A stretch of 10,669 bases of DNA from a virus (lineage: Duplodnaviria; Heunggongvirae; Uroviricota; Caudoviricetes; Schitoviridae): IMG/VR virus record IMGVR_UViG_2595698760_000001, positions 64,001 to 74,669 of that record. One strand, written 5' to 3'. A program made the translations under genes and the position numbers. Position 1 is the stretch's first letter. Every line of letters starts with the position of its first letter. Shown in pieces: positions 6,373-10,669 of this stretch. Below the pieces are notes generated by a model, which did not search any database, was not told where the DNA came from, and was given only the letters and a program-made list of their open reading frames with translations.

Positions 6373-6981
6373 ATGTCTGAAGTTAAAAATTTCGTAACCG
6401 TTACTGAACGTTCTACCAAAGCAATGCTGTCTGCCTCTGCCACCCTGGCTAAAACCATCGGTGAGCTGACCACTCTGGCCAACACCTCTGAGCAAATCGC
6501 TCAGGAAATTGGTTTCCGTCAGAATGAGCTGTCTCAGGTTGAAGGCGACTACGACCAGAAGCTGGCTGAAGCCAAAGCTGACCTGCGCATCAAAGTGCTG
6601 AACAACGAAGACCAGGTGCTGGGCAATCTGCTGAAAGCACGCGGTCTGGTGACCATCGAACCAGGCGAACTGGATACCCTGCGTGACAACCTGACTGCTG
6701 CCGAACACGGCCAGGAAGATGCAATCGCTGCAGCCGTTCAGCAAGCAATGGCTCAGGCCAACCGTGAAATGCAGGCCCGCCTGTCTCAGCAGGAATCTCA
6801 GCACAAGGTTGCCATCGCTGAGCTGACTGCAAACAGCCGCGCTAAAGACGACCGCGTAACCATGCTGACCGAACAGCTTGATGCTGCTCGTGCTGACCTG
6901 AAGGCAGAGCGCGAAACTCGTCTGGCAATCGCCCAGGCTGAATCTCAGCGTCAGGGTGTTGTGGTCAACGCCGGTAAGTAA
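6373..6981 (+). CDS. Conserved phage coiled-coil protein (202 aa), function unknown
   Basis: AAGGA SD, double TAA stop, and strongly biased enterobacterial high-expression codons (CTG, GCT, CGT, AAA, GAA). Ala/Glu/Gln-rich helical sequence ending RQGVVVNAGK, which I recall as a hypothetical family in N4-like phages. Confidence 0.9.
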   Translation: MSEVKNFVTVTERSTKAMLSASATLAKTIGELTTLANTSEQIAQEIGFRQNELSQVEGDYDQKLAEAKADLRIKVLNNEDQVLGNLLKARGLVTIEPGELDTLRDNLTAAEHGQEDAIAAAVQQAMAQANREMQARLSQQESQHKVAIAELTANSRAKDDRVTMLTEQLDAARADLKAERETRLAIAQAESQRQGVVVNAGK

Positions 6982-7003
6982 TAAGCTGGTGACCCTCAGC
7001 ACA

Positions 7004-7413
7004 GAGTTCCCCTTCGGGGGAACTCGATGGTGAGAATCGCTACCTTACCGTTGCAGTGAGGCTTGTCGGCCAAGCCTGACCTATAGAGGAGCGGAACCAC
7101 TACCGCTCGAAACCGACCTCCGGCTTTCACCCGGATGAAATTGTGGGCCTGAGCGTCCGAAGGGAATGTGGCTATCAACCACCTTGAAAGGTTCCCTTAG
7201 GCGCAAGCCTGCGCTGGCATCGTACTGCCCAGATAGGATTTCGGTTCTATCTGTCGGTATCTTCACCAGTTTACCCGGGCTGGTTTCAAACGAAGGTATC
7301 GACAGATGGAACTGGGTGCATACAGCGGAGCGGCCTTGTGAGAGCAGGGCGTCTGGTGACTCACACATCGGGCGTCATGTTAGGCAGAAGCCCAATGGAA
7401 GCTCACGACCATC
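7004..7413 (+). ncRNA. Candidate large structured non-coding RNA (family not recognised)
   Basis: 9-bp C(TTCG)G hairpin 7004-25; long-range GATGGT 7026-31/ACCATC 7408-13; stems 7059-65/7071-77, 7089-94/7103-08, 7125-29/7136-40 and 7160-66/7192-98; GCAA tetraloop hairpin 7199-7210; 21-bp helix 7244-64/7292-7312 whose only three non-Watson-Crick pairs are G.U. No credible CDS. Confidence 0.65.
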
Positions 7414-7417
7414 AATC

Positions 7418-7480
7418 CTCCCTGCGGGACGAAGTGCGGATAATCCTTCGGGAACCCATACTGAAACGTTCCGCAGGGAG
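7418..7480 (+). promoter_or_regulatory. Structured element sequestering the RBS of the first array gene
   Basis: 14-bp stem CTCCCTGCGGGACG (7418-31)/CGTTCCGCAGGGAG (7467-80) with one G.U, and an inner TCC-TTCG-GGA hairpin (7444-53). Its 3' strand contains the GGGAG SD located 6 nt before ATG 7487. Confidence 0.6.
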
Positions 7481-7486
7481 ACCACC

Positions 7487-7654
7487 ATGACCATCCTCGA
7501 TATTCTATTCCTCACCGTTCCCTGCAAGTACAACCGCCAGTACCTCCTCCAGTATTACCTTAATTCAACCGATGAACCCCAGTGCCGTATCTCTTTTGCA
7601 TGGAGCCTCCATGAACCTGCTATCCCTTTTAGTTACCCAAGTCACAACGTTTGA
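7487..7654 (+). CDS. Small array protein 1 (55 aa, MTILDILFLTVP...)
   Basis: GGGAG SD and the shared N-terminal motif. It is the 3' part of track ORF 7166..7654. Confidence 0.7.
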   Translation: MTILDILFLTVPCKYNRQYLLQYYLNSTDEPQCRISFAWSLHEPAIPFSYPSHNV

Positions 7655-10230: not shown

Positions 10231-10301
10231 AACATATAGCAAAATTCGCTAGTTATGTTCCACTGTACTATAGGGGCGCTACACTCTCAAAGTGGAGACT
10301 A

Positions 10302-10310
10302 CCCCCCCCC
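10302..10310. other. C9 homopolymer at the end of the AT-rich stretch; probable vicinity of the genome terminus/terminal-repeat boundary
   Basis: The run is seen directly. The terminus interpretation is inferred from N4-like gene order (terminase side, right-end genes, then the first early gene). Confidence 0.35.
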
Positions 10311-10372
10311 ATGTTCTACACGCCTAACGGCTATTGTGGCACTCATGCCCACTTAACCTTAGGAGTATTATC

Positions 10373-10669
10373 ATGGCTCGTCGTACAACAGTTGGCTCAG
10401 TAACTGGCGCACTCATTGACTCAATGGAAGTAGTCAGCAATGTAGCTGGCACTCTCTCTGATTCAGTAGCACATGTGCGTACAGCAGTAGAAGGCTTAGG
10501 CTATAAGGCTCATGTATTCCGTGAGTCAGCAAAGCTGGATGCACAAATCGAACTAGGCAAGATGAAGTCTGACAAGACTCTCGCTGCCAAAGTTGACTTA
10601 GCTAAGCAGAAAGCTGAAGTACAACGCTTAATGCAAACAGACAAAGAACTTGCTGCTGTCTGGAATGAA
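10373..10669 (+). CDS. Early protein, probably the first gene of the left end (N4 gp1-like); 3' end beyond window
   Basis: Strong AGGAG SD at 10361-65 and 99 open codons, MARRTTVGSVTGALIDSMEVVSNVAGTLSDSVA...ELAAVWNE. Absent from the track because there is no stop in the window. The family call rests on recalled similarity and position. Confidence 0.75.
   Translation, partial: MARRTTVGSVTGALIDSMEVVSNVAGTLSDSVAHVRTAVEGLGYKAHVFRESAKLDAQIELGKMKSDKTLAAKVDLAKQKAEVQRLMQTDKELAAVWNE

Follow-up and report, generated by a model that had tools for sequence, protein, structure and literature searches.

The transfer RNA (tRNA) cluster of phage T4 gives rise to species 1 and 2 (RNA C and RNA D), structured non-coding RNAs of unexplained function that are processed from a longer transcript. 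GOLLD and ROOL are large ornate Rfam RNAs, often found in phages near tRNA genes, and RNase III acts at processing hairpins in phage polycistronic messages, as in the T7 early region and in lambda. Here we describe an RNA island of the fire-blight phage S6 (Erwinia; Waedenswilvirus, N4-like), a gene-free stretch of ~500 bases (positions 6995–7486) on the right arm of the genome. On the plus strand it is flanked by a gene for a protein of 202 amino acids (aa) upstream (6373–6981) and by an array of small open reading frames (ORFs) downstream, which extends to the right genome end. The island lies in the window analyzed here, whose positions are used throughout and which makes up the final 10,669 bases of a virus record of 74,669 bp (IMG/VR IMGVR_UViG_2595698760_000001, positions 64,001–74,669). 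An earlier note on this DNA had proposed a novel ornate RNA of ~400 nucleotides (nt), closed by a long-range helix, at the position where N4-like phages often carry tRNAs. A structured, non-coding plus-strand RNA that belongs to no Rfam family is upheld by our analysis; one closed molecule is not. The reading that we prefer, with about even confidence, is that of a plus-strand island made up of five or six RNA modules that fold independently, are maintained by selection and would be processed from right-arm transcripts.

The modules, designated 0, A, central, 3, 4 and 5 (Table 1), share some properties with the described systems, among which the T4 RNAs are the closest. As with T4 RNA C and RNA D, module A has relatives within the tRNA arrays of TR2-like phages, and a piece of the island of phage Pastis has one after the tRNA array of Johnsonvirus phages. 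This likeness is one of type and position; no relationship in sequence was looked for or seen, and S6 differs from T4 in having no tRNA genes and in the larger size of its island (five to six modules). In common with GOLLD and ROOL, the S6 RNA is phage-borne, structured and linked to a tRNA neighbourhood; unlike them, it has no cmscan match at E≤10, no support for one global fold and a different host group. Two duplexes of 24–31 bp and 14+7 bp stand between cistrons of the same strand, the second covering a ribosome-binding site, as is the case for the RNase III hairpins of T7 and lambda. Cleavage of these duplexes is putative, and the likeness would account for modules 3 and 5 but leave the conserved unpaired motifs of modules A and 4 unexplained. 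Within the N4-like phages, a transfer-messenger RNA (tmRNA)-like island in Triduovirus, Ithacavirus and Pylasvirus occupies the same slot after phrog_9325 on the same strand, and is likewise unannotated and of similar or larger size, but, unlike S6, it has a tag frame (ANDDVVLMAA-stop) and a partial Rfam tmRNA match. The small-RNA locus at orf69–orf70 of phage LUZ7, next in closeness to the T4 RNAs, differs from the S6 island in its late transcripts and its genome position (PMC9163698). We found no paper on structured RNAs of Schitoviridae.

Strand, conservation and coding potential

The closest relatives of S6 are the Erwinia amylovora phages Fifi011 and Pastis (Waedenswilvirus, Schitoviridae, N4-like). 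Fifi011 is alignable across the entire RNA region (~86% identity to S6), and Pastis is alignable in blocks (65% overall, 80% in the 5′ domain). Between S6 and Fifi011, the identity of 86% in the RNA region compares to 54% in the following 300 nt. The consensus fold of the three genomes, calculated with RNAalifold, consists of 148 predicted pairs with an energy of −166 kcal/mol on the plus strand; the minus strand reaches −127, and 30 column shuffles give −72 ± 5. Standard pairs occupy 92% of the cells, versus 35–44% when the partners are slid by 1–3 columns. Compensated pairs number 26, compared to 2–4 after sliding and a mean of 13 (maximum 20) in the column shuffles (n = 30), although these controls overstate the significance and, with three genomes, the independent evolutionary events are few. 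The earlier note had named pairs broken without compensation in homologues as evidence against its reading; Fifi011 and Pastis keep the helices, with the 26 compensated pairs among them.

The helices use G·U pairs that can form on the plus strand only. These fill 54 cells on the plus strand versus 15 for the same structure on the minus strand (83% paired), a comparison biased toward the plus strand, on which the structure was derived; the independent minus-strand fold is also clearly weaker. The S6 plus strand (6985–7490) folds with an energy of −222.9 kcal/mol, compared to −178.2 ± 7.1 for shuffled sequences (z −6.3), whereas the minus strand reaches a z of −3.7. The excess stability comes mainly from three long hairpins at 6995–7034 (z −5.9), 7228–7317 (z −6.9) and 7414–7486 (z −4.9). 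The intervening sequence is close to the shuffled level (z −0.9 to −2.0), and is distinguished instead by sequence conservation and covariation. A plus-strand RNA had originally been proposed from a 21-bp helix with three deviations, all G·U. This helix is confirmed as the core of a longer one of 24 contiguous pairs (7241–7264 with 7292–7315), with no mismatches and five non-Watson-Crick pairs, all G·U, three of which fall within the 21-bp core; the proposal is supported by the G·U counts and by the z values of the two strands. From the 26 compensated pairs, the G·U pairing on the plus strand and conservation exceeding that of the downstream DNA, we conclude that a plus-strand RNA structure in this region of S6 is under selection.

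The one-sided G·U pairing also argues against a DNA-level element, such as extruded hairpins acting as promoters in the style of N4 and LUZ7, a replication origin or a packaging site; the five G·U pairs of the 24-bp helix are C·A mismatches on the other strand. In favour of such an element, early and middle promoters of N4-like phages are DNA hairpins, and hairpin promoters would show compensation too. With no iterons, no AT-rich stretch (GC 0.55) and no skew change, a replication origin is rejected. We found no paper on an N4 origin at the right end. The genome ends elsewhere, in an exact direct terminal repeat of 397 bp, the terminal repeat of N4 itself being ~400 bp. Since the right copy of the S6 repeat maps to 10273–10669, the RNA region, ~2.9 kb inside it, is rejected as a genome end or terminal repeat. 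The repeat contains a gene start (ATG at repeat position 101) and, at repeat positions 65–81, a short hairpin with a 3-nt loop that resembles an N4-type early promoter. A search for N4-type early promoters (hairpins with 3-nt loops) found nothing near the island, and no sigma-70-like promoter was found in S6, Fifi011 or Pastis. The middle promoters of LUZ7 are GC-rich hairpins with stems of at least 6 bp and 3–4-nt loops, ~15 bp upstream of a G start (PMC9163698). The hairpin of module 0 fits this description, with its 9-bp stem, 4-nt loop and G7029/7030 at the right distance; similar hairpins occur genome-wide without a shared flanking motif. Because at most one hairpin fits the promoter pattern, a DNA-level element could explain module 0 only, and we regard it as very unlikely.

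No reading frame is conserved across S6, Fifi011 and Pastis. Every plus frame of the RNA region has at least seven stops in Pastis, the open frames of the three phages are in differing registers without correspondence, and the indels between S6 and Fifi011 do not come in multiples of three. GenBank records show either hypothetical proteins or nothing over this RNA. In Fifi011, the hypothetical proteins gp109 and gp108 are placed over it in differing frames, with no counterpart in S6 or Pastis. As no frame is shared and the indels are not multiples of three, gp108 and gp109 are probably mis-annotations and not genes.

A cmscan search of the whole window (all 4227 Rfam 15 models, both strands, permissive filters) gave no match at E≤10, leaving the uncatalogued status of the RNA intact. 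The rejected candidates include GOLLD, ROOL, HEARO, OLE, raiA, RNase P and group I and II introns, as well as hammerhead, twister, pistol and hatchet ribozymes, none of which has a covariance-model match at this threshold. A hammerhead-like arrangement in module A (CUGAC...GAAAC) was dismissed: it is interrupted by 6 nt at a point where the hammerhead core tolerates a single base, and stem III has no partner. ARAGORN detected no tRNA gene in the window or the whole genome at default settings, and neither tRNA nor tmRNA in the window at default or at 80% thresholds. In the absence of ARAGORN genes and of an RF00005 match at E≤10, a tRNA is ruled out for S6. A tmRNA is ruled out as well, with no Rfam model matching at E≤10, no call by ARAGORN with -ps80 and no GGTTCGA-type T-loop. 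The lack of hallmarks of tRNA, tmRNA, RNase P, group I introns and hammerhead, which had been noticed by inspection, is thus confirmed by cmscan and ARAGORN. Judged by these comparisons, the S6 modules are new sequence families of narrow range, outside every Rfam family.

Local modules and related pieces in other phages

The small motifs listed in the earlier note are all present: UUCG at 7013–7016 and 7240–7243 (with a third at 7447), GCAA at 7203–7206, GTGAG at 7030, 7056 and 7338, and CTCAC at 7360 and 7402. The conserved copies of GTGAG and CTCAC, for which the earlier note had proposed pseudoknots, are invariant among the homologues, the CTCAC at 7402 not being conserved. The conserved GUGAG/CUCAC copies could give long-range contacts and, together with the GNRA and UUCG loops, the near-continuous pairing potential, the many invariant unpaired stretches and a module order that is identical in S6, Fifi011 and Pastis, they speak for one ornate RNA of ~400 nt with a global tertiary fold, similar to GOLLD or ROOL. 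We consider such an RNA improbable. The only long-range helix proposed for it, GAUGGU (7026–7031) with ACCAUC (7408–7413), is true as base complementarity in S6, but 12% of shuffled partners do as well or better. In Fifi011 and Pastis the best pairing uses a different partner, 19–24% of the shuffles are as good, and the register is lost. The global consensus topology varies with the scoring scheme while the local helices stay, and the helices that survive the comparison are all local: the module 0 hairpin and its outer stem, H2, H3 and H4 of module A, the CUAUCAA-loop hairpin, module 3 with its apical stem, module 4, and module 5 with its inner stems. Moreover, the central third is replaced between S6 and Pastis, modules recur singly in the tRNA arrays of other phages, and no large-RNA family of Rfam is matched at E≤10. 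The chance-level closing helix, the unstable global topology and the unalignable central third therefore point to a row of modules and not to a single closed fold.

Module 0 has two compensated pairs in the alignment of S6, Fifi011 and Pastis and, by eye, more of its stem pairs change in Pastis yet stay paired. The hairpin is terminator-like, with a U tract, in Pastis only; no intrinsic terminator is called at this site in S6 or Fifi011. Module 0 may represent the 3′-end mark of the message of the 202-aa gene, or a hairpin-type promoter.

Module A contains an invariant junction, UGACYUAUAGAG, between H2 and H3. The H4 stem is kept by differing sequences in the three Erwinia phages (UCCGG/CCGGA, CCUC/GGGG and CACC/GGUG). 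Its loop in S6, CUUUCAC, the sequence of the anticodon loop of E. coli tRNA-Glu, is absent from Fifi011 and Pastis. H4 of S6 has 23-nt BLAST matches of 96% identity in tRNA genes of Pseudomonas and Pectobacterium phages (E about 5), and at 80% thresholds ARAGORN reports module A of Pastis as a sub-threshold tRNA-Pro-like cloverleaf. These tRNA-like touches of module A are weak.

Permissive BLAST with the Pastis sequence gave short matches in unannotated gaps of other N4-like phages. Module A was found in this way in Salmonella phage TR2, in an 820-nt gap between tRNA genes. The portion common to S6 and TR2 (5′ module, 7036–7117) consists of H2, the junction, H3 and the GAAAC that follows, and two compensated pairs (CG to AU and GC to UA) maintain H3. 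A pattern scan located the core of module A, again inside tRNA arrays, in two 72-kb TR2-like IMG/VR contigs, beyond which the IMG/VR pattern scans gave no further homologues. A covariance model built from the three Erwinia phages (R1) finds TR2 and the two contigs with 26–30 bits (E 1e-5 to 1e-6), and 94.5% of the cells of module A are paired, versus 11–41% when slid. The complete records of N4, KP8, KpCHEMY26, FSL SP-076, S5, Ea9-2, Rexella and BUCT194 gave no match to R1; thus, among the phages tested, module A is confined to Waedenswilvirus and Triduovirus-like phages. The TR2 gap also holds a 28-codon Cys-rich ORF (CxxxxCxxC...CxC) with a good Shine-Dalgarno sequence, and a tRNA-like stretch, with TCCGCTCCA at its end, for which ARAGORN makes no call. 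Just upstream of the gap (L008, 2298–2383), ARAGORN calls an odd tRNA-Tyr with anticodon AUA.

The central module of S6 is alike in Pastis only in the CUAUCAA hairpin, the remainder not being alignable. The central piece of Pastis shares 40 nt (z 13 versus shuffles) with an RNA located after tRNA-Lys in the Johnsonvirus phages Ea9-2, Frozen and Rexella. This Johnsonvirus RNA is conserved and structured, about 265–270 nt in length, and lies directly 3′ of the last tRNA (Lys), with a strong intrinsic terminator at its end; it carries no annotation or, in phage Tellus, that of a hypothetical protein. In their non-coding regions, S6, Fifi011, Pastis, Ea9-2, Rexella and Salmonella phage S5 all have hairpins with a CUAUCAA loop (CUAUCAC in Ea9-2) and differing stems. 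Beyond this hairpin, local alignment of the S6 central module with the S5 and Ea9-2 RNAs does not exceed the level of shuffles (z 1.2–1.7), and homology was rejected. Comparison with the other phages establishes that the modules are mosaic, and that two of the pieces are akin to RNAs of tRNA arrays. A location in the same unit as tRNA genes, as for the T4 RNAs, is seen for the module A homologues (TR2 and the two IMG/VR contigs) and for the Ea9-2 piece, not for S6.

The stem of module 3 has two compensated and six one-sided changes and is, by its length, an RNase III-type duplex. One of its segments, UCUAUCUG (7246–7253), can pair alternatively with CAGAUAGG (7230–7237) or with 7306–7313, both of which are conserved. 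In module 4, five of the changes seen across S6, Fifi011 and Pastis are compensated and five are one-sided; this module rests on comparative evidence since it is not the minimum-energy fold of the single S6 sequence. A metagenome pattern scan gave two matches. The better one, RRYU01001102.1 (nhmmer 1.6e-6 in a small local set), resembles the module 4 hairpin and is intergenic on a bacterial contig, between dhaK- and dhaL-like genes. It was treated as a chance match to a REP-like repeat family, because a second REP-like copy lacks the motif; a Poribacteria match from a genome-contig pattern scan was also taken as chance. Module 5 has three compensated pairs in its outer stem and two in its inner stem, and buries the ribosome-binding site (GGGAG) of the first small ORF of the right-end array. 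This 55-aa ORF has 44% identity to a 76-aa Pastis protein in the same position and is, by that comparison, a real gene downstream of the RNA region.

Table 1. Positions of the S6 modules, their neighbours and related features in other records
Feature	Record	Positions	Strand	Remarks
202-aa gene, upstream	window	6373–6981	+	phrog_9325, PHROG hit 1.6e-73
Module 0: 9-bp GC-rich UUCG-loop hairpin (7004–7025) and outer CUCA/UGAG stem	window	6995–7034	+	z −5.9
Module A (5′ core): H1–H4 and junction	window	7036–7137	+	near-invariant in S6, Fifi011 and Pastis
H1	window	7039–7054	+	module A; weak hairpin
H2	window	7056–7080	+	module A
H3	window	7089–7108	+	module A; GAAAC follows
H4	window	7119–7135	+	module A; 5-bp stem, loop CUUUCAC
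Central variable module	window	7138–7229	+	fold z −0.9
CUAUCAA-loop hairpin	window	7168–7182	+	central module
GCAA-loop hairpin	window	7199–7210	+	central module
Hairpin with CGUA-containing loop	window	7216–7229	+	central module
Module 3: long hairpin, 24 contiguous pairs	window	7241–7315	+	z −6.9; 5 G·U, 0 mismatches
Module 3, 7-bp apical stem	window	7265–7271 with 7277–7284	+	1 compensated change
Module 4: 15+4-bp hairpin, invariant loop ACUCACA	window	7333–7385	+	invariant CUUGUGAGAGC just upstream
Module 5: 14-bp stem enclosing inner stem and UUCG hairpin	window	7418–7480	+	z −4.9
First small ORF (55 aa) of the right-end ORFan array	window	7487–7654	+	Pastis counterpart
Hairpin in right terminal repeat	window	10337–10353		3-nt loop
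Fifi011 gp109 and gp108	L001	964–1487		hypothetical proteins in GenBank
TR2 gap with module A	L008	2384–3201		between tRNA genes
Johnsonvirus RNA, Ea9-2	L009	2308–2573		
Johnsonvirus RNA	L012	1501–1790		
Johnsonvirus RNA	L013	1501–1773		
tmRNA-like RNA, TR2	L016	2488–3263	−	MW544066 29987–30762
tmRNA-like RNA	L011	4053–4836		
tmRNA-like RNA	L018	2791–3583		
tmRNA-like RNA	L022	2266–3030		
tmRNA-like RNA	L019	196–464		
RRYU01001102.1 match	L007	3708–3766		taken as chance

The 202-aa gene and the slot downstream of it

The protein encoded just upstream of the island is coiled-coil-like, and no Pfam domain was found in it. Its gene is 93% identical in nucleotides to that of Fifi011 and 74% to that of Pastis. 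Many N4-like phages carry a homologue, as do PVP-SE1-like myophages. The gene adjoins the tRNA arrays of TR2, S5, FSL SP-076 and KpCHEMY26, and lies inside the tRNA region of the myophage contigs. Homologues (among them L004:3001–3606 and L005:3001–3606) are located in or beside tRNA/RNA islands in two unrelated groups, the N4-like podophages and the PVP-SE1-like myophages, and in S6 the gene is kept beside the RNA island despite there being no tRNAs. The 202-aa gene and the RNA region form a conserved unit. The protein may be functionally tied to the island RNAs, or may travel along with them as a cassette.

The placement of the RNA at a tRNA position, as the earlier note had it, holds in that relatives carry RNA genes in this part of the genome; the exact slot differs from that of the tRNA arrays. 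In Triduovirus, Ithacavirus and Pylasvirus, the arrays are just upstream of the 202-aa gene. The slot just downstream of the gene is occupied in TR2, S5, FSL SP-076, KpCHEMY26 and an IMG/VR contig by a ~780-nt unannotated tmRNA-like RNA, which is also present in KP8. The tag frame of this RNA, which ends in MSA in place of MAA in FSL SP-076 (ANDDVVLMSA), persists despite synonymous changes and is found in five phage genera or contigs. Its partial match is to the Rfam model tmRNA_permuted, with 30.6 bits (gathering score 47); ARAGORN calls a permuted tmRNA only at 80% thresholds, and T-arm-like pieces occur at variable places. We found no paper on tmRNA in N4-like phages. A tag frame and a T-arm are absent from S6, Fifi011 and Pastis, and nhmmer shows no similarity between their RNA and the tmRNA-like one of TR2, S5 and SP-076. 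Since the S6-type RNA and a dissimilar tmRNA-like RNA occupy the same position, we regard the position after the 202-aa gene as an RNA-gene slot in this phage lineage, with contents that vary by genus.

That relatives carry tRNA arrays beside the same gene could also suggest that the S6 region is the decaying remains of such an array, or of protein genes, with no present function. The CUUUCAC loop of H4, the weak BLAST matches to phage tRNA genes, the tRNA-Pro-like call in Pastis and the overlap with gp108 and gp109 of Fifi011 would each suit a relic of this kind. However, the compensated helices and invariant junctions persist while the neighbouring gene is down to 74% identity, and the downstream DNA falls far short of the RNA in conservation. 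Neither a conserved frame nor a tRNA match in Rfam at E≤10 was found. Largely refuted already by the covariation, decay is to us a highly improbable origin of the region.

Possible processing, regulation and function

If the island is a set of independently folding modules, as we prefer, it would share a rightward transcript with the 202-aa gene and the small-gene array. This is suggested by the equivalent right-end ORFan cluster of LUZ7, which is covered by Watson-strand transcripts in mid-infection (PMC9163698). Host RNases would cut the transcript, with RNase III as a candidate at the 24–31-bp hairpin of module 3 and at the hairpin over the ribosome-binding site, and the cutting would free small stable RNAs. 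The conserved loops and single strands (UGACYUAUAGAG, CUAUCAA and ACUCACA) may then contact a protein or another RNA. The S6 island could thereby be the counterpart of the unexplained RNAs of phage tRNA operons, in a phage that lost or never had tRNA genes.

Several points weigh against this reading. No promoter or terminator is assignable in S6. The whole element is present in only three genomes and module A in six, and the covariation amounts to very few evolutionary events, that of H3 to one split. Module A, the central module and module 4 are thermodynamically unremarkable. The separate processing of the modules is something that we infer from their mosaicism and do not observe. Finally, the island adjoins a hairpin in which the ribosome-binding site of a small conserved gene is hidden, and this fits a role in cis too.

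Such a role is the substance of the main rival, which we hold to be possible though doubtful; a regulatory leader was also the alternative offered in the earlier note. Here, the folded RNA would serve in cis as the leader (5′ untranslated part) or a processing region of the message of the right-end small-gene array, without a product acting in trans. It would control the array by way of the hairpin that covers the ribosome-binding site, by cleavage of the long duplexes by RNase III, by stabilising the message or by anti-termination. The island indeed runs into the compensated 14-bp hairpin that buries the GGGAG of the conserved 55-aa ORF, and no terminator separates the two in S6. The segment UCUAUCUG, with its two conserved partners, is switch-like, and module A of TR2 also precedes a small ORF with a good Shine-Dalgarno sequence. 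On the other hand, a leader of 480 nt would be very long by phage standards, and conservation is much stronger in the RNA than in the genes that it supposedly regulates. In other phages the homologous pieces sit between tRNA genes or finish in a terminator (Ea9-2), as RNA genes behave, and the terminator-like first hairpin of Pastis would separate the 202-aa gene from the remainder.

A further proposal, which we put forward as speculative and consider unlikely, is that the modules and the 202-aa protein constitute a mobile RNA-protein cassette, whose folded RNAs, some of them anticodon-arm-like, act in trans on the host. The RNAs could in that case act as decoys for defence nucleases that target tRNA or sense RNA, or inhibit such nucleases, or they could modulate translation in the host. 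This would amount to an RNA-carried counter-defence or takeover function, kept even without tRNA genes.

Taken as a row of maintained modules, the preferred reading, the island offers a practical entry point: S6 is a cultured phage with a tractable host, and the near-invariant core of module A could be used as bait for a binding partner. In phage genomes, which are tight, 500 conserved, compensated and non-coding bases are not accidental. Since S6 has no tRNA genes, the role of the modules would be independent of tRNA supply.

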